Below, piece by piece: positions 11,071 through 59,936 of a stretch of 64,000 bases of DNA; the first letter of the stretch is position 1; the number at the start of each line of letters is the position of its first letter. Under the pieces are notes generated by a model, which searched no databases, was not told where the DNA came from, and saw nothing but the letters and a program-made list of their open reading frames with translations. The translations under genes and the position numbers were made by a program. The DNA is from Candidatus Nanoarchaeia archaeon (lineage in GTDB: Archaea > Nanobdellota > Nanobdellia > Woesearchaeales > JANQNE01): positions 25,872-89,871 of the forward strand of contig JANQNE010000011.1 of the NCBI GenBank assembly GCA_028279725.1, read 5' to 3'.

Positions 11071-11163
11071 TGTATAACACGCTACGTTCTATTCTGGAAT
11101 GGATCTGTTTCAGATTCTAGTATTTTTATAACTCTGTCCGAGAACTTCGCTTGGTGTTATGCA
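11071..11163. ncRNA. conserved ~95-nt hairpin element, copy A (candidate structured RNA)
   Basis: Homologous to 48762-48857 and 59004-59098. 10-bp closing helix TGTATAACAC:GTGTTATGCA, inner helix GTTCT:AGAAC, conserved blocks GCTACGT, TTTCAGATTCTAGT and GAGAACTTCGCTTG. Confidence 0.6.
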
Positions 11164-11171
11164 CTTTAGGA

Positions 11172-12866: not shown

Positions 12867-13211
12867 ATGGCTGCAAAACAAAAAATAATAGGGCTTACTG
12901 AAAAAGTACTGGTCTATGGCCAGAATAAAAAGAAAAATGTTGTCGCTAGGATAGATACTGGAGCGACAAAGTCTTCTATCGATGTAAAATTAGCTGCTGA
13001 GCTGCAGTTAGGTCCTATATACAGGACTAAATTAGTCAAGTCTACCCATGGTAATACATTAAGGCCTGTTGTTGAGATGAACATAAGACTTTCTGGGGTG
13101 GAATTAAGGTCAGATTTTACGATAGCTGACAGAACTGATATGAAATATCAGATATTGGTCGGCCAGAATATATTGAAAGAGGGAAATTTTTTGGTTAATC
13201 CTAAAAAATGA
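12867..13211 (+). CDS. retropepsin-like aspartic protease domain protein (RimK-associated, DUF785/Zn_protease-like)
   Basis: ARIDTGATKSSID (D-T-G-A active-site signature). 114 aa. Overlaps the rimK-like start by 4 nt. Confidence 0.6.
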   Translation: MAAKQKIIGLTEKVLVYGQNKKKNVVARIDTGATKSSIDVKLAAELQLGPIYRTKLVKSTHGNTLRPVVEMNIRLSGVELRSDFTIADRTDMKYQILVGQNILKEGNFLVNPKK

Positions 13212-41909: not shown

Positions 41910-44900
41910 ATGAAGGATTTAAGCAGATATCTAGATAAATTTAGAGGCGATTCTGTTAGGTTAGATAGACCTAGCCTTGATGATGATATCCGGACTATAG
42001 TATTCAATTATGAGCCTTTTGTTCTTGATTGGAAAAATTTTAGGAAACTGGAAAGAGATACTGAAAGAGAAGCAGAAGAAGTCTATAAGCAAAGAGCTCT
42101 GAATGGAGACACCTATACTGATATTGAAAAACAGTTTAAAGATGACCCAAAAGGAAGATATGATGCTACGAAAGATAGAGACTGGGTTGAAGGAAAGGTA
42201 AAAGCGTTCAGGCCGGAGATAAAAAGAGCTCTTGAGAGCAAATCAATAATAGGTATTAGACCTGACCAGGAAGATCTTGAGTCTATCTGTATGGATAGGA
42301 ACATCACTTTAGTTGGAAAAGAAGTTGTAGGTATTAATTCTGAATTTATGGTGGGAAATGACATCATACTTTTGGAGACCGAAGTATATGAAAAGGTCTG
42401 TGAGAGGCTAAAAGAAAGCGATGATAAATCAAAAGAGAATGCAGTAGCTACAATCAAGGAAGTTATTGAAGAAGAACTTACTAAAGAGAAACCAAAACTG
42501 CTGATAGTTGATAATGAAATGGGAGAAAGATTGAGGATGACTGAAATAGCTCTAAAATGCGGGTTTAGCACTCGAATAGCTGAAAATCCAGAACAGGCAT
42601 TTCAGATGCTTGAAAAAGAAAAAGACATTGGTACGATAATAACAGGTGATATATTTCCTGGAACTAATGGGCTTGATTTCATAATGGAGCTTAGAAAGAG
42701 AGGAGGAGAACAGCATGCAATACTTGTATCAGATGAGCAGTTCATAGAAAAGGAATATGAAGGAAAAAACCATAAAGAACTGCTTCAGGCAAATGTGAGA
42801 GTTATTGAGAAAGGAGGAAATACAGATCCAGAGATAAGAAGTGAATTTCTTAATGCTAAAGGTAAGATGGATCTTATGGCTGAGAAGACAGATGTACGTA
42901 TAGAGGAGAAAGATTCAAAGATACCAACCTTTGCAGATTTTGAGAATAAGATAAGAGATTACAACAGCAATTCTGGAAAGCTTATAATGCTTGATTCGAA
43001 TGATATCAATGAAGTTATTACATCATTCAAGAGCAAGTTTAAAACACCCGAAGATTATATCACACTTTCAACTTTGAATAATGAAGATATGAAATACATA
43101 TTGACTGTTCCACGTATACTTAAGATTGAAGAGAATGGTGTGGAAGATAAAGCTATCGACCATATGATGGATGTTTTGGATCCTGAGGAAAGAAATCTAG
43201 GAAATGTTCTTGGAAAATTCTATGAAAAGATAAAAGAAGGATGGACTGGAGAAGATGTACAGGAGCTGCTTCGTTCAATCCTACGAAAAGAAGATGTAGG
43301 AGAATCTATCAAGAGTATTTACAGAAATAGAAAGGGTATGGATGATGAAGTAGTCATTGAAAGGAATATGAGAGAAGGTTCTGATTTTAGAACTTCTATA
43401 TTTTTCAGCTATAAGAATGCAGGAAGAGTGGCTGAAAGATACAATCATTATAGTGAGGATAAAAGGATAAAGTATAATCTTGGAATTACAACAGAAAGAG
43501 TAAGCTGGGTTGCAAAGAACAATGCACTGCTTGCCAGGTATCTTGAGATGTTTGGTGCTGCAAAAGGGAAAGTTGAACATGACAGTCTTGTCAATATAAT
43601 AAATCAGGACAGAAAGGATGATGTTGTGAGCATCAAGGAATCAAAGATTACAGTAGATTCAAAATATCATGTTTACGAAGTTACATCAACTTATGGAGAA
43701 AATGAAAAAAGACACAGCATAGTAAAATTCATAACTAATCCAGATTCATTTGAAAGGGAAGTCTATAACTATAATTATTTCAAGAGATTTGACGGAATAA
43801 ATGATGCGAATAGTCTGGTAACTACAACAGTGGAGGATGAAGAAGGAAACAAGAATTATGTTGTTGTACTTAATTTTAAGGAAGGAGTGGAGCCTAGACA
43901 GAATCTTATGACTACTTTTGAAAATATAAGAGAGAGTATCAAGACAGGAGGAGATGATGTTAAGAAAGAGCTTAATGATAAGGCAAATAAAGTAGGGATA
44001 CAGGCTATGTCTGATGTAGGAAGAGTACATGGTGTTGCTCCTGAACTAAAAGGAGATACATACACTTCATTCTATGGTGATTTTAAAAAATACCTTCATT
44101 TCAGGATAGGAGAGTTCCAAGATAATCTTACTGACCTTGTAAAACAGCTTGCTACTGAATTTAAAGATCATATACAAAAGAACTCATCAAGAGTTAAATC
44201 AAACTCTTATTCACTTGTTGAATATCTAGCAAGCATGGATACAACTTTCTATAAGGATACTGTAACAAAGAACATGACTCCTATGGGGGAGGAAGGAGGG
44301 AAGAACTCAGGCAGGTTTGCATCAGTTGATTATGGAGAAGTCAGAAAACTTCCACTGACTTTTGATGTTGCAAATGCAGTACATACTATGTACATACCTG
44401 ATATCAGGGTTGCTGAGGAAGATGGAACAATAGATCAGATGCTGATATCCTATCTTAGTGGATATTGTGAAGGAAGAACATCGTACAATAATGAAGTTAT
44501 GAAGAAGAAAAATGTAAAAAAATATCTTGTAGATAATCTTGAAAGGATGAGAAAAGGGACAGGAAATGAAAGTGTAAGGGAGAATCTATCTGATCTTCTT
44601 AAGATAATAAAGAAGGAAGAGCCAAAACATAAGAGCAGGAAAAAGAAGATGGCATTTTATAAGGATATCATGTCTGGATTTGCTGAGTCAAGCGGATCAG
44701 ATGAGTTAAAAAGAGTTGTAGCGAATGAGATCAAATATTTTGATGAAATAGAAGATAAACCTGACCCATATTTTGGGAAGCTTAAGATCAGGACAAGCAC
44801 TGCGAAAGGAAGAAGAAACAAAAGATATGAGATCATAAGCGATAAATTAAAAGGACCAAGAGATAGGTGGTCAACTAAATTGAATGATGCGTTCGAAAGA

Positions 44901-45212
44901 TTCAAAGCAGATTTCTATGTAAGTATGGCATACAGAGGACAGGTTATAGCAAATACTGTTCCAGTCTATATATTATCAGATCATAATATCAACAAGCAGA
45001 GGAGGGATTATTTTTCATCTGTTATGGGAAATACTACTCAAGCATTAGAGATACTTAGTGAGAAATATATCGGAAAAGAAAAAGGAATGTACTTAAGGAG
45101 AGAGCTAGATGGCGATAAGCTTAATGAAGTTAAGAATGCACTTTCAGATATCAGGAATATATTTGAAAAGATAGATCCGGGGGCTGTTAAGAATGCCGAA
45201 TACAAAGCTTGA
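41910..45212 (+). CDS. 1100-aa multidomain protein: unknown N-terminus, receiver (REC) domain, possible protein-kinase-like/APH-like domain, unknown C-terminus
   Basis: REC: KLLIVDNEMGER...IGTIITGDIFPGTNGLDFIMELRK...HAILVSD. Kinase-like: HSIVKFITNPDSFEREVYNY, VVVLNFKEG, FYKDTVTKN (HxDxxxxN-like), ASVDYGE (DFG-like). Confidence 0.6.
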   Translation: MKDLSRYLDKFRGDSVRLDRPSLDDDIRTIVFNYEPFVLDWKNFRKLERDTEREAEEVYKQRALNGDTYTDIEKQFKDDPKGRYDATKDRDWVEGKVKAFRPEIKRALESKSIIGIRPDQEDLESICMDRNITLVGKEVVGINSEFMVGNDIILLETEVYEKVCERLKESDDKSKENAVATIKEVIEEELTKEKPKLLIVDNEMGERLRMTEIALKCGFSTRIAENPEQAFQMLEKEKDIGTIITGDIFPGTNGLDFIMELRKRGGEQHAILVSDEQFIEKEYEGKNHKELLQANVRVIEKGGNTDPEIRSEFLNAKGKMDLMAEKTDVRIEEKDSKIPTFADFENKIRDYNSNSGKLIMLDSNDINEVITSFKSKFKTPEDYITLSTLNNEDMKYILTVPRILKIEENGVEDKAIDHMMDVLDPEERNLGNVLGKFYEKIKEGWTGEDVQELLRSILRKEDVGESIKSIYRNRKGMDDEVVIERNMREGSDFRTSIFFSYKNAGRVAERYNHYSEDKRIKYNLGITTERVSWVAKNNALLARYLEMFGAAKGKVEHDSLVNIINQDRKDDVVSIKESKITVDSKYHVYEVTSTYGENEKRHSIVKFITNPDSFEREVYNYNYFKRFDGINDANSLVTTTVEDEEGNKNYVVVLNFKEGVEPRQNLMTTFENIRESIKTGGDDVKKELNDKANKVGIQAMSDVGRVHGVAPELKGDTYTSFYGDFKKYLHFRIGEFQDNLTDLVKQLATEFKDHIQKNSSRVKSNSYSLVEYLASMDTTFYKDTVTKNMTPMGEEGGKNSGRFASVDYGEVRKLPLTFDVANAVHTMYIPDIRVAEEDGTIDQMLISYLSGYCEGRTSYNNEVMKKKNVKKYLVDNLERMRKGTGNESVRENLSDLLKIIKKEEPKHKSRKKKMAFYKDIMSGFAESSGSDELKRVVANEIKYFDEIEDKPDPYFGKLKIRTSTAKGRRNKRYEIISDKLKGPRDRWSTKLNDAFERFKADFYVSMAYRGQVIANTVPVYILSDHNINKQRRDYFSSVMGNTTQALEILSEKYIGKEKGMYLRRELDGDKLNEVKNALSDIRNIFEKIDPGAVKNAEYKA

Positions 45213-47676: not shown

Positions 47677-47826
47677 ATGGAGATACCTGATGACTGGAAT
47701 GAAGAAAATGAAGATACCATCTATTCAGAGGATGGAAGAGAAAGTTTAGTAGATAGTGAAGCTATGACACCAGAAGAAGCTGCATTTATGCAGGGTTATA
47801 GTGAAGCTGAAGAAGAGCTTGAATAA
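47677..47826 (+). CDS. small acidic protein, paralog 1 (49 aa)
   Basis: TATA tttataaaa and SD AGGAGGG upstream. MEIPDDWNEENEDTIYSEDGRESLVDSEAMTPEEAAFMQGYSEAEEELE. Below the ORF-track cutoff. Confidence 0.6.
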   Translation: MEIPDDWNEENEDTIYSEDGRESLVDSEAMTPEEAAFMQGYSEAEEELE

Positions 47827-47942: not shown

Positions 47943-48092
47943 ATGAAAATAATAAAATCAAATTGGATAGATGAGTTAGAGGGTGAGAACTTAAGCGTTT
48001 ATTCTGAAGACGGCAGAGATATGCTTGTAGACGATGATGAGATGACATTAGAGGAAGCTGGCTTTATGCAAGGCTGGGATGAAGCAGGTTAA
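47943..48092 (+). CDS. small acidic protein, paralog 2 (49 aa)
   Basis: SD GGGGTGGGG upstream. MKIIKSNWIDELEGENLSVYSEDGRDMLVDDDEMTLEEAGFMQGWDEAG. Confidence 0.6.
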   Translation: MKIIKSNWIDELEGENLSVYSEDGRDMLVDDDEMTLEEAGFMQGWDEAG

Positions 48093-48585: not shown

Positions 48586-48759
48586 ATGAGAGATGATTAT
48601 AAGGAAGAGATTGAGGAAGAGAATGTATATAGTGAAGGCGGTAGAGAGAGCAATCTAGATGATGATGAGATATCGGGCAGTGAAGAAGCATTTATGCGTG
48701 GATATGATGATGCTGAAGAGTATGATGACGGAGATTACTCTGAAAGCGAAGAAGAATAA
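48586..48759 (+). CDS. small acidic protein, paralog 4 (57 aa)
   Basis: SD AGAGGGTGA upstream. MRDDYKEEIEEENVYSEGGRESNLDDDEISGSEEAFMRGYDDAEEYDDGDYSESEEE. Confidence 0.6.
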   Translation: MRDDYKEEIEEENVYSEGGRESNLDDDEISGSEEAFMRGYDDAEEYDDGDYSESEEE

Positions 48760-48761
48760 GA

Positions 48762-48857
48762 GTGCATATTGCGCTACGTACTAATTCTGTTTTTTGACTG
48801 ATTTCAGATTCCAGTGTCATAGATATTTACCTGAGTACTTCGCTTGCCAATATGCAC
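48762..48857. ncRNA. conserved ~95-nt hairpin element, copy B (candidate structured RNA)
   Basis: 10-bp closing helix GTGCATATTG:CAATATGCAC, inner helix GTACT:AGTAC, blocks GCTACGT, TTTCAGATTCCAGT and GAGTACTTCGCTTG. Begins 3 nt after a stop codon. Confidence 0.6.
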
Positions 48858-48904
48858 CAGAATAAACAAAAGATTTATTAAATAAATAACTAATTCTTTT
48901 AAAT

Positions 48905-54503: not shown

Positions 54504-55823
54504 TTATATAATATTTAATTGTAATCTTCTTTCTATCTCTTTACCAATCAACCTGTAATATTCTTTTAATGTAATTTCTCCATAATCTTTTCTTGCAGCC
54601 CTGTCGATGTAATAACACAGAGTGGTATTTAAGTAGTGATCATACATTCCTGTTGTTCCTAACAGGCTATCAAGTTTTCTAACACCTATATCAATCACTT
54701 CGATATAACGCGGAATTGGCATCTTATTATGCCTTACTAAGATGCTAGGGTCCTTACCATAGATATATTTCTTCATTTTCTTTGCATAAAAATCAAGCAG
54801 TTCTCTTCTGTCAACCGGAACTTTAACATTCAGATGGTGGGATTTAACACATATGCATCTTTCTTCTAATCTTTGCCCAGTCCTGTAATCATAAACATGT
54901 TTTAATGCGATAACTTCATAGTTTTTTTCTCTTTTTCTGATTGCAGCAAGTTCATCATCTGTTAGTTTTATAGCAACAGCATTAAATTTATGACCTATGG
55001 AAGCAGAAATGTTCAGTACAGCAACTCTATTTGCCTTAATATCTTCATCTGTTTCCCATTTCTTTCTGGTGGCGATCTTGTTAAATACTCTTTTATAACC
55101 TACCACCCACACAGGTGTTAATCTGGCTTTGAATTCTGCAGCTAAATCCTTTATAGGAGTTCCTGCTTTTTCTAAAGTTGATCTTAGTTCATCTATAGTT
55201 TCATCTGCATTCATCAGGCTGCCATAGCCAACCAAAGAATATGTGAAATTTCTTGGGTATTCTTCTTCAATATTTTTGGTCTCTTCTTTAGCAATCTCTG
55301 CTAATTCCTTTTCTTTTCCCAGGATTATCCCTTCTTGTCTGATGAGGGTCTCAAATTCATGAAAGTTCTTGATGAAAGAAGGGGGATTATCTAGGTGTTT
55401 TTTTAACCACCCCATCTGTTTTTGTAATACTGAAACCAGATTCCTTAGACTTTCGTGAAGGATATTAAGATCTGAATATTCCCGAAGAGTTAATTTAAAC
55501 AACTTCCTATTAGTTTTCCATCTAACCAGCAGGTCCTTTAAGATGTTTAATGCCTTACTTGAATATTTTTCCTCTGTTTTCTCATAATTTTCTTCAAGCC
55601 CAATAACCCGTAGAAGTTTCCTTGTTTCATTAAAGATGGCCTTTCCACCAAATGCAGTGATTTTACCTTTTTTCTGCTCGTCTCTACATCTTTTGATAAA
55701 AGCCAGTTTTCTCCTGTACCTGTCTTCCAAAGAATAAAATACCTTTAGCATGTCCTTTAAATTATCATCCAGTTTGTTTAACATATTAGAACTTTTTTTT
55801 GAGATGAATATGTCAAATATCAT
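54504..55823 (-). CDS. protein with a C-terminal ChaC/gamma-glutamylcyclotransferase-like domain and a helical N-terminal extension of roughly 200 aa
   Basis: LVGYGSLMN, VVGYKRVFN and IRKREKNYEV resemble ChaC blocks (YGSLxW, GxxRxF, RExxxY). Start placed at MIFDIF, 25 nt downstream of TATA ttttatata; the track ORF uses a TTG at 55877. Confidence 0.45.
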   Translation of the reverse strand: MIFDIFISKKSSNMLNKLDDNLKDMLKVFYSLEDRYRRKLAFIKRCRDEQKKGKITAFGGKAIFNETRKLLRVIGLEENYEKTEEKYSSKALNILKDLLVRWKTNRKLFKLTLREYSDLNILHESLRNLVSVLQKQMGWLKKHLDNPPSFIKNFHEFETLIRQEGIILGKEKELAEIAKEETKNIEEEYPRNFTYSLVGYGSLMNADETIDELRSTLEKAGTPIKDLAAEFKARLTPVWVVGYKRVFNKIATRKKWETDEDIKANRVAVLNISASIGHKFNAVAIKLTDDELAAIRKREKNYEVIALKHVYDYRTGQRLEERCICVKSHHLNVKVPVDRRELLDFYAKKMKKYIYGKDPSILVRHNKMPIPRYIEVIDIGVRKLDSLLGTTGMYDHYLNTTLCYYIDRAARKDYGEITLKEYYRLIGKEIERRLQLNII

Positions 55824-55917
55824 ATAGGTGGGAAATATGTGGGTGAGGTATATAAAATTTTCTACTCGTCTGATCAAAAGAAAAAATATTTAAACCCCTG
55901 TTACTTTAGCCTTATAA

Positions 55918-56928
55918 ATGGAAAAACGAAAAAGAGGAAGGAAAGACAAAAAGCTAGTTCTGTTCAGGAAGTTGAAAAAGATAGAGAGTGAGGTATTTAA
56001 TGACGGGTTTACATACCTGGTAAGCTTATTGAGATATCCAAATCACAGGAGTTTCCAGTACGGGACTTTAGAGCATATATACAAGAAAAGGAATGAGGGT
56101 TCTTTCAAGAATTTCTTTTTTGATAAGAAGTTGTATCAGCTTGTTAAGAAGGAGATTGAAATTCTTTATCCAAAATATAAAAGGATAAGGATAATCATAA
56201 CAAGGTATGGTATAATGGTGTGTGATAATTATAGGCCTAATAACTTTAATGTGTTGCTTCTGACTATCCATGCCGGAAGGTGGGCTCCTGAGAATATCGA
56301 AAAGAAGATGAGATTGACCAGGACAGGAAGGTTTAGGGAGGAAGATATCGACTCTGACAGGATATATTCTAATATTGTTCTTGAGAGAGGAGGTATATGG
56401 ATCAACTCTAAACTTTCAAGATATGTCTGTGACCTTAACAGGCCACAGAACAGGTGCATATATTTCAAGAAAGATGAGAAATGGATAGATAACGATATCT
56501 GGGATGATGATCTTACAAATAAAGAGATAACACAGATAAACAGGTGGCATCAGGATTTTTATGTTACACTACATAAAGTGTTGGAGACGTATAAGTTCAA
56601 TATAATATTTGACGGGCATACTATGAAAGACAGGCCTGGAAGACCAACGATAAGTTTTGGTACAAAGCATATATCTCCATTCTATATGCCTGTTGTGAGA
56701 GCGATGAAAAACAGGCTTAAGAAAGTGGGGTATAAAGATACTTTTTTCAACAGGCCTTATGGCGGTGGTTTCATTTTGAAATGGCTGAAGACCAAATTCC
56801 AGGATAAGTTTATATTCTCTATGGAGATAAACAAGAAAGAATATATGAATAAAGACAGGACTAAGACAAAGAAGGATAAGGTTGAAAGGTTAAGCCATGA
56901 GATAACACAGATATTTGATATAAAATGA
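55918..56928 (+). CDS. N-formylglutamate amidohydrolase (FGase) family protein
   Basis: LLLTIHAGRWAP, YVCDLNRPQN and NIIFDGHTM correspond to the HAG / DxNR / DxH(S/T) metal-site blocks of the FGase family. Confidence 0.55.
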   Translation: MEKRKRGRKDKKLVLFRKLKKIESEVFNDGFTYLVSLLRYPNHRSFQYGTLEHIYKKRNEGSFKNFFFDKKLYQLVKKEIEILYPKYKRIRIIITRYGIMVCDNYRPNNFNVLLLTIHAGRWAPENIEKKMRLTRTGRFREEDIDSDRIYSNIVLERGGIWINSKLSRYVCDLNRPQNRCIYFKKDEKWIDNDIWDDDLTNKEITQINRWHQDFYVTLHKVLETYKFNIIFDGHTMKDRPGRPTISFGTKHISPFYMPVVRAMKNRLKKVGYKDTFFNRPYGGGFILKWLKTKFQDKFIFSMEINKKEYMNKDRTKTKKDKVERLSHEITQIFDIK

Positions 56929-58325
56929 AGATAATAAACACGACAAAGAAGCAGAGCAATAAAAGGCCTTTGAAAAAGGCAAAGACCGGGCTGGAAGTAG
57001 AGATGTTTGTCATAGATAAAAAAGGAGATATGACACAGAAAGGATATTCTCTTGTGAAAAATGTCAAGAAAATAGAGGGAGAAGTTGAGATTGTAAAAGA
57101 AGTCGGAATGAATATGATCGAGTTCGGGTGTTATCCTAGTGTTAATACATACAACCCCGCGTTGGAACTGATCGAGTCTATAGAGAAGACAATAAAGATT
57201 GCAAAGAAAGATGGATTATTGCTATATCCTTTTGGAACTTATCCTGGAACCTCTGAATCAAAGCTTACTCCAGACACAAGAGGGCACTATAAGATCAAGA
57301 AGAAGATATTTGGAGATAAGAAATTTCCATTAGCAACAAAAGCGATAGGATTTCATCATCACTATGCTCTTCCTAAAGGGGTGTTTAATTACGAGAAGAA
57401 GGAATTAAAATTATTGATTGACAGTAAGTTGAAGAGAAGTTTGTTGAATTGCTATAATTTTGAGATCGCTATAGATCCTATATTGACGTTATTGACGCAA
57501 TCATCTCCATTTTTTGAAGGAGAACAGCTTGCTAAGGATTCGAGGATGCTGATATATAGGGGAGGAAAGAAACTAAAGTATAAGAAAGGGCTGTATCATA
57601 AGTTCCAGATATTAGGTGGGCTTCCTCCATATAAGCAGACTGAGACTGACCTGATAAGAAGTATCAAGAGGAGACAGCAGAAATGGAAGAGGCTTATAAG
57701 AAAGGCTGACAAGACTGTGAAGTTCAGGAAGATGTATCCGTTCAAGATGGATATAGGATGGAATCCTATAAAGATCAACAAGCATGGAACTTTGGAGGAA
57801 AGAGGGATGGACATGAACTACATGTCTATACTTCTTGGAGTCTCTGCTTTGATCAAGTTCTGTCTTAAGAAGATACAGAGAGATTTTATCGAGGTCATAC
57901 CTTCTGATATCGGGATAAAGGAGCCTTTCAAGATAAGGAAAGGTGTGATGTTTATCCCGCCGCATACACATATCAGGGAAAACTTACAGAAAGCCAGCGC
58001 TTATGAAGGATTTGATAATGATGAGCTTTACGAATATACAAAAGCATTCTATAAGCTTGCAAAGAGCTTGTCAAGAAAGATCTATTATCCTTTGTTTGAA
58101 AGGATCGAAGGGATGATAGAGAAAAGAAAGTCTGTCTCTGATGAGATCATCGATTATGCTAAGAGGAAGAAATTAATCAATGGTGATGGAAAGATATCAA
58201 ACAAGAATGCAAAAGTTCTTGCATTGTATCTGTCTAAGAAGTTTGAGAGGGACCTTAAGGAGACAAAGAAGATAGTAAAGGAGATAATGACGAAGCATAA
58301 AAGACAGATCAAGACTAAAAGATGA
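56925..58325 (+). CDS. carboxylate-amine ligase, glutamate-cysteine ligase family 2 (GCS2/YbdK-like)
   Basis: TGLEVEMFVIDKKGD, GFHHHYALP, ERGMD. Overlaps both neighbours by 4 nt. Confidence 0.6.
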   Translation: MKIINTTKKQSNKRPLKKAKTGLEVEMFVIDKKGDMTQKGYSLVKNVKKIEGEVEIVKEVGMNMIEFGCYPSVNTYNPALELIESIEKTIKIAKKDGLLLYPFGTYPGTSESKLTPDTRGHYKIKKKIFGDKKFPLATKAIGFHHHYALPKGVFNYEKKELKLLIDSKLKRSLLNCYNFEIAIDPILTLLTQSSPFFEGEQLAKDSRMLIYRGGKKLKYKKGLYHKFQILGGLPPYKQTETDLIRSIKRRQQKWKRLIRKADKTVKFRKMYPFKMDIGWNPIKINKHGTLEERGMDMNYMSILLGVSALIKFCLKKIQRDFIEVIPSDIGIKEPFKIRKGVMFIPPHTHIRENLQKASAYEGFDNDELYEYTKAFYKLAKSLSRKIYYPLFERIEGMIEKRKSVSDEIIDYAKRKKLINGDGKISNKNAKVLALYLSKKFERDLKETKKIVKEIMTKHKRQIKTKR

Positions 58326-58969
58326 TAAAGGCTATCGTATTTGATATGGACGGAGTAATAGTTGATTCTGAGAAGTTGCACTTTCAGGCCTGGAAAATTC
58401 TTTTTAAGCAGGAGAAAGGTATTGAGATCGATGAAAAATATTTTAAGAAGATGGTCGGAACTACAGATCTTTTTACAGTCAGACATTTTTTCAGGAAATA
58501 TAAGATAAGGGGAAATATCCAGGAATGGAGGATGAAGAAGAAAAGAATCATACTCAAGATGTTTAGGGAGAAAGGGAAGATCTTTCCAGGGGTTAAACAT
58601 ATTATCAGGAAGCTGAGCGCTAAGTATAAGATGGGATTAGCTACAGGAGCCTGGAGAGCATCAGCTAATGTTGTGATGAAGAAGTTTGATCTTAAGCAGT
58701 ATATCTCTAAGATGGTCACGAAAGAAGATGTCAGGAATCATAAGCCGCATCCTCAGGCTTATCAGAAGATGGCAAATCTTTTAGGGGTTGATGAGAAAGA
58801 GTGTGTTGTATTTGAGGATTCTGTGCCTGGAATATTGGCTGCAAAAAGAGCTAAATGCAAATGTATCGCTGTTACAAACAGCCATCCTGCAGCAAAGCTG
58901 AAGAAAGCTGACCTGGTTGTGAAGGATCTTAGGGATAAGAGGATAGGAAAGTTTATTAGTTCTTTATAG
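58322..58969 (+). CDS. HAD-IA hydrolase (beta-phosphoglucomutase-like phosphatase)
   Basis: IVFDMDGVIVDSE, GLATGA, HKPHPQAY, VFEDSVPGILAAKRAK. Confidence 0.8.
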   Translation: MIKAIVFDMDGVIVDSEKLHFQAWKILFKQEKGIEIDEKYFKKMVGTTDLFTVRHFFRKYKIRGNIQEWRMKKKRIILKMFREKGKIFPGVKHIIRKLSAKYKMGLATGAWRASANVVMKKFDLKQYISKMVTKEDVRNHKPHPQAYQKMANLLGVDEKECVVFEDSVPGILAAKRAKCKCIAVTNSHPAAKLKKADLVVKDLRDKRIGKFISSL

Positions 58970-59003
58970 TATACTGGTATACGTTTTTGTATATTATGTT
59001 GAT

Positions 59004-59098
59004 GGTATAGCACGCTTTGTCTGCTTCTGAAATGGCTGGAGAAGCAGATTTTAGTCAATACAGAAGCTGTATCTGAAGACTGCGCTTGGTGCTATACT
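59004..59098. ncRNA. conserved ~95-nt hairpin element, copy C (candidate structured RNA)
   Basis: Closing helix GGTATAGCAC:GTGCTATACT, inner helix GTCT:AGAC, internal hairpins TCTGCTTC:GAAGCAGA and TACAG:CTGTA, blocks CAGATTTTAGT and GAAGACTGCGCTTG. Confidence 0.6.
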
Positions 59099-59163
59099 TT
59101 ATATCCGAAATATTTAAATAAAGAATCGAGATTTCTATCGCTACAAATAACAAGAGTGATAAC

Positions 59164-59355
59164 ATGGGAAGAATAAAAACAAAACTGGTAAAAAGAATAA
59201 CAAACGAACTGATAAAACAGTACGGAGAAAACTTCAAGAAGGAGTTTGAAGAGAACAAGAAATTAGTAGAGAAATATTCCAGTGTTCCATCTGTAAAGAT
59301 GAGGAACATTATAGCTGGATATGTAACAAGACAGATGAAGAATAACGAAGAGTGA
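59164..59355 (+). CDS. rps17e: 30S ribosomal protein S17e
   Basis: MGRIKTKLVKRITNELIKQYGENF...MRNIIAGYVTR is the S17e pattern. Confidence 0.9.
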   Translation: MGRIKTKLVKRITNELIKQYGENFKKEFEENKKLVEKYSSVPSVKMRNIIAGYVTRQMKNNEE

Positions 59356-59367
59356 GGTTGAGAGAAA

Positions 59368-59649
59368 ATGGCAGAAGACAATTCAATATTTGTGGGCGGA
59401 AAGCCGTTCATGAACTATGTGACAGCAGTGGTTATGCAGTTTACGACAAAGAATGCAGACGAAGTTTTGATAAAAGCAAGAGGAAAGTTTATTTCAAGAG
59501 CTGTAGATGTAGCGGAAGTCGCTGCAAAGAGATTCTTAGACGGGCAGATCGAGCCTAAAGAGATCAGAGTAGACAGTGAAGAGTTCCAGAATAAGGAAGG
59601 AAAACAGGTCAGAGTCTCTACAATCGAAATAATACTAGGAAGGAAGTGA
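59368..59649 (+). CDS. albA: Alba DNA/RNA-binding protein
   Basis: NSIFVGGKPFMNYVTAVVMQF...VLIKARGKFISRAVDVAEV. Confidence 0.9.
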   Translation: MAEDNSIFVGGKPFMNYVTAVVMQFTTKNADEVLIKARGKFISRAVDVAEVAAKRFLDGQIEPKEIRVDSEEFQNKEGKQVRVSTIEIILGRK

Positions 59650-59834: not shown

Positions 59835-59936
59835 GGGCCTATAGTCTAATGGATAGAACAACCGGCTTCGGTAAGTGGGGTCAAAAGCTTCGCTTGTGGG
59901 TACCGGTTAGTGGGGGTTCGAATCCTCCTAGGCCCA
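59835..59936 (+). tRNA. tRNA-Arg (anticodon TCG) with a 30-nt intron at the canonical 37/38 position; no encoded CCA
   Basis: Acceptor GGGCCTA:TAGGCCC (7 bp), anticodon stem ACCGG:CCGGT, loop C-T-TCG-G-[intron 59872-59901]-A, T arm GGGGG-TTCGAAT-CCTCC, discriminator A. The mature length is 72 nt. The D stem has one mismatch. Confidence 0.8.

Follow-up and report, generated by a model that had tools for sequence, protein, structure and literature searches.

Structured mobile repeats that occupy the spacers between genes are known as a kind from bacteria, and among them bcr1 of the Bacillus cereus group, for which the studies of Okstad (2004) and Klevan (2007) are reportedly the source, would be the closest analogue of the element described here. 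It is mobile, is bordered by short direct repeats, varies in distribution among strains and is transcribed, and the branched structure of its RNA is preserved by compensatory changes (PMC3184786). The present element resembles bcr1 in being a small non-coding intergenic repeat, patchily distributed in close relatives, with short direct repeats flanking two of the copies and a covarying stem-loop. It differs in that bcr1 is bacterial, about 155 bp long and bordered by direct repeats of 5 bp, with no sequence similarity between the two; in addition, copies of bcr1 in one genome resemble each other far more closely, and their transcription has been demonstrated, whereas our element is known from sequence alone.

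Two other groups of repeats are of relevance. MITEs, such as the Correia/NEMIS elements of Neisseria and those of Sulfolobus and haloarchaea, are likewise around 100 bp long, non-coding and intergenic, with inverted termini, proximity to promoters and presence/absence polymorphism. The repeat analysed here is small, non-coding and multi-copy, and is present or absent at orthologous sites (two relatives lack the element at the site of copy A and two at that of copy C, and the region of copy B is empty in contig L035). However, the terminal inverted repeats of MITEs are conserved in sequence and match those of a parent IS, whereas here inverted termini exist with unrelated sequences, complementarity alone being kept, and no parent IS was found in the 64 kb analysed. 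ERIC/IRU (RU-1) and REP/REPIN sequences are also imperfect palindromes located in spacers in either orientation, which fold in transcripts, and REPINs in their hairpin form are the target of a dedicated HUH enzyme. Our element has an archaeal host, is not GC-rich, shows no simple hairpin in its interior and has no RAYT-like gene in sight. A REP/REPIN-RAYT system (a GC-rich palindrome of 20-40 nt with a GTAG head, plus the RAYT) was rejected on account of the absence of that head, the 35-41% G+C content of the copies and the lack of a HUH domain in the window, i.e. the whole stretch of 64,000 nucleotides of a Woesearchaeota (DPANN) genome that was analysed in this work. The assignment of the window to Woesearchaeota comes from homologues of its Alba protein.

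The genomes of DPANN archaea are tiny and tightly packed, and to our knowledge almost nothing has been reported on their non-coding or mobile DNA. Literature searches returned no account of such an element in DPANN, and the repeat is not previously described; what is new here is its archaeal host, its presence in a DPANN genome, its sequence-free termini and its conserved junction.

Copies of the repeat and their surroundings

The family is represented here by six copies, three in the window (A, B and C, Table 1) and three (L044a, L044b and L045) on two JGI metagenome contigs. Relaxed BLAST and an nhmmer profile identified the two window copies beyond C, and an unfiltered covariance model (CM) returned exactly these three, with nothing else in the window above 13 bits. 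Among JGI metagenome contigs, a pattern derived from the invariant blocks detected two copies, in L044 and L045 (101 and 107 bits with the covariance model); the model then gave L044b, which is more diverged (48 bits) and lies head to head against L044a at a distance of 1 nt. E-values of the covariance model were 1e-18 to 1e-23. The element measures 93-106 bp in the six copies, holds no conserved ORF and has a G+C content of 35-41%, the genome average being 36.6%. Within this genome the copies are only 65-70% identical to each other.

The two head-to-head elements of L044 lie inside a larger palindrome (98-353), in which CTGAAGCCCTTT at 98-109 pairs with AAAGGGCTTCAG at 342-353. This may mean that L044a landed in a pre-existing hairpin, or that an inverted duplication included the flanks.

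A previous sequence-only reading had considered 59004-59098 to be a copy of a repeated hairpin element between a HAD phosphatase gene and the promoter region of the S17e-Alba genes. Both statements were confirmed, the first by the other copies in the window and the metagenome contigs and the second by Pfam, which identified the neighbours as a HAD hydrolase (58322-58969), S17e (59164-59355) and Alba (59368-59649); the BRE/TATA-like promoter of the latter two starts 7 nt downstream of copy C and is conserved in two relatives.

Table 1. Positions in the window of the three copies, of the parts of copy C and of adjoining features.
Feature	Positions	Strand	Remarks
Copy A	11071-11164	+	CM 102 bits; between two minus-strand genes
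Left direct repeat of copy B, AGAATAA	48753-48759	.	7/7 identical to 48859-48865
Copy B	48760-48858	+	CM 91.6 bits; first found by nhmmer; begins where a small acidic ORF ends, next to its stop codon
Right direct repeat of copy B, AGAATAA	48859-48865	.	7/7 match in 0.6-1.6% of null flank pairs
Small hairpin GTATAC-N6-GTATAT	58977-58994	+	Outside the element; conserved in relatives without the element
Copy C	59004-59098	+	CM R1 86.9 bits, E 3e-18
P1, 5' arm, GGTATAGCAC	59004-59013	+	Partner 59089-59098
5' junction block, CGCTTTGT	59013-59020	+	CGCTWYGT in the 5 well-conserved copies
P2, 5' strand, GTCT	59019-59022	+	Partner AGAC, 59077-59080
Copy-specific hairpin 1, TCTGCTTC:GAAGCAGA	59020-59048	+	Present in copy C; overlaps P2
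Middle block, CAGATTTTAGT	59045-59055	+	CAGATTYYAGT in 5 copies; degenerate in L044b
Copy-specific hairpin 2, AGTC..TACAG-aag-CTGTA..GACT	59053-59081	+	Inner 5 bp 60% paired in the family; outer AGT/ACT invariant but in competition with P2
3' junction block, ACTGCGCTTG	59079-59088	+	ACTKCGCTTG in 5 copies; ACTTCACTTG in L044b
P1, 3' arm, GTGCTATACT (= GTGCTATAC(T))	59089-59098	+	Partner of 59004-59013
S17e-Alba promoter, BRE/TATA-like, CCGAAAT.TTTAAATA	59105-59120	+	Conserved in L035, L040 and L052

Wider searches returned no further members. A two-block pattern run against 185,579 species genomes gave 31 matches, none a genuine copy and all of them chance matches in bacteria that extended over nothing but the pattern. 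Pattern scans of viral contigs gave no genuine copy, BLAST against phage and plasmid sequences gave no match, and about 136 kb of other Woesearchaeota loci contained no copy. With Rfam at gathering thresholds, the sole match in the whole window was a tRNA (59835-59936), while the permissive filters of Rfam 15 applied to copies A and C produced nothing credible, only junk snoRNA-like matches on C (E 2.7-6.1, 12-16 bits versus gathering cut-offs of 45-55). ARAGORN found nothing.

Conserved anatomy and the fold of copy C

Three helices are kept by compensatory changes in the six copies: a closing stem of 10-16 bp (P1), an adjacent 2-bp helix and the short inner P2. In the six-copy alignment 88% of the cells are paired and 14 of the 20 pairs have changed on both sides, with a covariation score of 0.667 versus 0.237 for shuffles, a value that 0 of 500 shuffles reached; when pairing partners were slid by 1-3 columns, pairing fell to 30-51%. 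The closing stem is 10 bp long in the window copies and 16, 14 and 13 bp long in L044a, L044b and L045, respectively. Its sequences are unrelated between copies (the terminal sequences are TGTATAACAC, GTGCATATTG, GGTATAGCAC, ACTAATTTAATGCCAC, AGGGATAATACTGC and GTGACAACACTGC) yet perfectly paired: considering both arms, 98% of the cells are paired across copies, and double compensatory changes are found in 8 of 10 pairs.

At the foot of this stem there is a junction which, from the outside inward, is made up of the last C-G pair of the stem, a 3-nt UUG bulge (TTG at 59086-59088 in copy C, within the 3' junction block), a G-C and a C-G pair, a 3x3 pyrimidine-rich loop and P2. The two pairs of the short helix are formed in copy C by G59014 and C59015 with G59084 and C59085, and a C-G to U-A exchange in L044b confirms the helix. 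As for P2, its strands read GTTCT/AGAAC in A, GTACT/AGTAC in B and GTCT/AGAC in C, these being compensatory changes, and one of its positions is U-A, A-U or C-G depending on the copy. Three sequence blocks (Table 1) are shared by the five well-conserved copies, and all three are degenerate in L044b; the spacing between them is nearly constant (23-25 and 21-23 nt) and the sequence in between is variable. The stability of the hairpins ranges from -21 to -36 kcal/mol across copies.

These data bear on the explanation that palindromes arose by chance in the AT-rich spacers. Sequence such as that of a 36.6% G+C genome often contains short hairpins; nonetheless, the conserved blocks are common to contigs of an unrelated organism, and the E-values of the covariance model (1e-18 to 1e-23), together with a covariation above that of 500 out of 500 shuffles, refute this explanation, to which we assign a negligible probability.

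The main rival of the interpretation that we favour below, although a doubtful one, is a family of independently expressed small ncRNA genes. Their product would serve as an RNP scaffold or as a guide-type RNA, with the conserved blocks binding protein, the two variable segments of 21-25 nt giving specificity, and a fast turnover of genes; the gene copies of archaeal C/D box sRNAs do turn over quickly. The strong covariation of all three helices, the ruler-like spacing of the blocks with variable sequence between them and the fact that diverged copies are still paired would all be expected of it. On the other hand, assignment of a strand by G.U pairs gave no strand signal (2 G.T versus 4 A.C cells in the helices), there is no conserved C/D, H/ACA or K-turn signature, and no Rfam family was matched.

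Several known RNA classes were compared by eye with the six aligned copies and rejected. The boxes of archaeal C/D box sRNAs (C RUGAUGA, D CUGA, C'/D', K-turn) are not conserved in A, B and L045. H/ACA sRNAs carry an ACA on the 3' side of their lower stem, an upper stem with a K-turn or K-loop, and a guide pocket that varies; here no ACA follows P1, there are no tandem G.A pairs, and the junction is conserved rather than variable. A bulge-helix-bulge motif has two 3-nt bulges on opposite strands around a 4-bp helix, as opposed to the 2-bp helix, 3-nt bulge on one strand and 3x3 loop found here. A K-turn and hammerhead-like cores were rejected in the same way, an intrinsic terminator was rejected for lack of a U-run, and none of the Rfam 15 families (riboswitches, ribozymes, omega/HEARO RNAs and archaeal sRNAs included) scored at gathering threshold.

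With respect to copy C itself, its plus strand folds at -33.2 kcal/mol (z = -3.1; this was matched by 2 of 200 shuffles) and its minus strand at -30.4 kcal/mol (z = -4.4, 0 of 200). The closing helix and the two inner hairpins that had been pointed out in it are all literally present. Hairpin 1, with arms TCTGCTTC (59020-59027) and GAAGCAGA (59041-59048), actually extends to 9 bp (TCTGCTTCT/AGAAGCAGA), and hairpin 2 is composed of AGTC (59053-56), TACAG (59059-63), aag, CTGTA (59067-71) and GACT (59078-81). The three-way-junction-like fold deduced from them did not hold as the fold of the family: the RNAalifold consensus keeps the closing helix, the 2-bp helix and P2 only. On the plus strand the optimum is an extended hairpin that retains the closing helix, the three-way junction being 7 kcal/mol worse (-25.9 versus -33.2 kcal/mol) and the optimum on the minus strand only. 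Evaluated on the family alignment, hairpins 1 and 2 are 57.5% and 60% paired, compared with 98% for the closing helix, and their outer pairs need 59020-22 and 59078-80, which are also required by P2 (59019-22/59077-80). A perfect stem of 9 bp as that in the interior of C is infrequent, stems of at least 8 bp appearing in 1.6% of shuffles of this interior, while the longest perfect interior stems of the other copies are of an ordinary 5-6 bp; when a common inner fold was sought in the single-sequence optima of the six copies, each interior folded differently. Because the hairpins are poorly paired family-wide and compete with P2, and the other interiors disagree, we ascribe the three-helix fold to copy C and not to the repeat family. 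The description of this copy as having the best-defined three-helix fold is therefore right for its own sequence and wrong for the family, where the hairpins are not conserved in register. The alignment-based fold, for which failure to improve on shuffled controls had been proposed as the refuting outcome, held for the element as a whole, with 0 of 500 shuffles as good. What evolution has kept paired is the closing stem, and the interior of copy C is not common to the other copies.

Occupied and empty sites

The site of copy C is empty in L035/L040 and in L052, where the flanks are conserved and the spacer measures 89-100 bp versus 194 bp in the window. In L035 and its sister contigs (Alba 91% identical) the HAD-S17e spacer has 89 bp, and the alignment leaves a clean gap of around 100 bases; in L052, Alba is 92% identical. 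In these relatives the hairpin that follows the HAD gene and the BRE/TATA element CCGAAAT.TTTAAATA are conserved on either side of the gap. Regarding copy A, its site is empty in L054 and L057, with 25-36 bp between the Ddl-like ATP-grasp gene and the next TATA box versus 137 bp in the window. Identities of the Ddl-like protein (84% for window-L057, 77% for window-L054 and 80% for L057-L054) make the window and L057 nearest neighbours, so that a single gain is more parsimonious than two losses. In the case of copy B, L035 is without the element upstream of the B3_4 gene. At the empty sites of the relatives the next promoter follows the stop codon almost at once. These comparisons show that the element was gained at three loci, and it accounts for three lineage-specific spacers. 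That P1 could have been a pre-existing host hairpin hit by insertion of the core was rejected, the empty site A of the relatives having no hairpin.

Two relatives without the element have also kept the hairpin just mentioned, which is of 6 bp, is located directly after the HAD stop codon (58977-58994) and may serve to signal 3' ends or as a palindromic site for binding. Its GTATA is similar to the outer part of P1 in the window copies.

A tie of copy C to S17e/Alba expression, as implied by the sequence-only reading, is unlikely, because two close relatives keep the same promoter with the spacer empty. As a caution, regulation of the operon for the ribosomal protein and Alba should not be read into copy C. 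Another possibility, in which the repeat would be a cis-acting RNA of the flanking messages (a 3'-end stabiliser, a terminator aid or an insulator between gene and promoter) kept by the host, seems improbable to us as well. It would be in line with the location of all copies between a stop codon and the next promoter, with the stable hairpins (-21 to -36 kcal/mol) and with a P1 that can form from either strand. However, the conserved core is polar and non-palindromic and appears in both orientations with respect to transcription, the element is missing from relatives whose genes and promoters are the same, the stem is not followed by a U-run, and the conserved interior blocks would be left unexplained.

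Orientation with respect to neighbouring genes is indeed mixed: A and L044a are opposite to them, and B, C, L045 and L044b have the same direction. Copy A is antisense to both neighbours, since both are on the minus strand. Orientation in either sense would also suit free-standing ncRNA genes; against these stand the absence of a consistent TATA/BRE at a fixed distance upstream across copies, the start of copy B directly after a stop codon and the head-to-head arrangement of L044a and L044b, 1 nt apart, along with the empty state of all three sites in close relatives and the lack of copies in about 136 kb of other Woesearchaeota DNA.

The flanks of the copies were compared for direct repeats, and the seven positions on each side match in full in copy B (Table 1). 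In L044b, ATTAGTA/ATTAGTT match in 6 of 7 positions and abut its 14-bp inverted termini exactly. The repeats at the exact ends of B (7/7) and L044b (6/7) are candidates for the target-site duplications of fixed length that are typical of MITEs. The other four copies show matches of 4-5/7, which are not above chance: among null flank pairs, the best match was 7/7 in 0.6-1.6%, 6/7 or better in 8-16% and 5/7 or better in 37-59%. None of the sizeable ORFs of the 64-kb window encodes a domain of a transposase, an integrase or a reverse transcriptase.

We consider that the best explanation, with a probability of about one half, is that the element is a non-autonomous structured repeat, MITE- or bcr1-like, recognised as a folded single strand. 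It would represent a non-coding repeat family of a Woesearchaeota (DPANN) genome in which the sequence of the stem drifts while its pairing is maintained. It may have spread by being inserted into the AT-rich DNA that separates a stop codon from the BRE/TATA that follows, an event in which about 7 bp of the target were probably duplicated. The form recognised would be the folded strand, either ssDNA during mobilisation or read-through RNA, as suggested by conservation of the junction but not of the stem sequence. After insertion, the element would behave as a passenger that puts a stable hairpin at the end of the upstream transcript, and not as a specific regulator of S17e-Alba.

Some observations do not sit well with a mobile repeat. 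Classical recognition of inverted terminal repeats by a transposase does not fit termini without common sequence, direct repeats are convincing in only 2 of the 6 copies, the 65-70% identity within the genome gives no sign of a recent burst, and old copies that have stayed paired for long would be more usual for a functional RNA than for selfish DNA in decay. The element misfits the textbook MITE and points to a structure-reading mobilisation enzyme or an unrecognised small RNA. The lack of common sequence at the termini, along with conservation of the junction at the foot of the stem, suggests recognition of shape rather than of a terminal repeat. It is conceivable, if rather unlikely, that a partner which mobilises or binds the element reads this shape, the asymmetric junction being conserved below a stem whose sequence is free; this would make the element an archaeal counterpart of hairpin-recognising systems (REPIN-RAYT, IS200/IS605, attC-integrase) or a mobile family of small-RNA genes. 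We know of no shape-reading mobilisation or binding system described for DPANN archaea. The family analysis covers six copies only.

Reading of folded ssDNA is also the basis of a different possibility, that of a DNA recombination site such as integron attC or the substrates of REP/REPIN-RAYT systems, which we regard as highly improbable. The likeness to attC lies in a similar size range and a conserved fold with free stem sequence, bases bulged out of the helix, a central spacer that stays unpaired and an apical part that varies. Unlike attC sites, the copies show no R''/R' core (RYYYAAC/GTTRRRY) in their termini and do not form cassette arrays, lying 10-37 kb apart among syntenic housekeeping genes; no GTAG head is present either, and there is no integrase or HUH gene within the window. 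Integron attC, also compared by eye with the aligned copies, was rejected for the absence of the core and this distance between copies.

Other features of the window

Upstream of copy B there is a tandem of paralogous acidic ORFs of 49-57 aa on the plus strand (47677-47826, 47943-48092 and 48586-48759) with the motif YSEDGRE.L.DDDEM..EEA.FMQGY. Copy B directly follows the stop codon of the last one, and the corresponding place in L035 holds just two small ORFs. On the other side of the HAD gene from copy C, FGase-like and GCS2-like genes (55918-58325) lie between it and a gene at 54504-55877, which has no Pfam match and occupies the same place as a beta-CASP nuclease gene in a relative. L035 has a 121-aa ORF instead of the FGase-like and GCS2-like genes, which indicates a lineage-specific gene replacement next to copy C.

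DPANN archaea are usually described as lacking nucleotide synthesis, and in this regard the near-complete de novo purine pathway encoded at 16540-37227 (a PurF-PurD fusion, PurQ, PurL, PurM, PurC/E, PurN, FolD, PurH, PurB, PurA, GuaA and GuaB) is notable. The tRNA gene at 59835-59936, on the plus strand, has a 33-nt insertion (intron) in the anticodon arm and was detected with RF00005 (51.6 bits) and missed by ARAGORN. In a plus-strand ORF of 1100 aa (41910-45212) the sole Pfam signal was that of a response-regulator receiver domain, which was weak and did not reach the curated cut-off. Finally, a small retropepsin-like aspartyl protease of the RimB/Zn_protease family (12867-13211, plus strand) adjoins a RimK-like ATP-grasp gene, and this arrangement is conserved in a relative (L057, 586-933).
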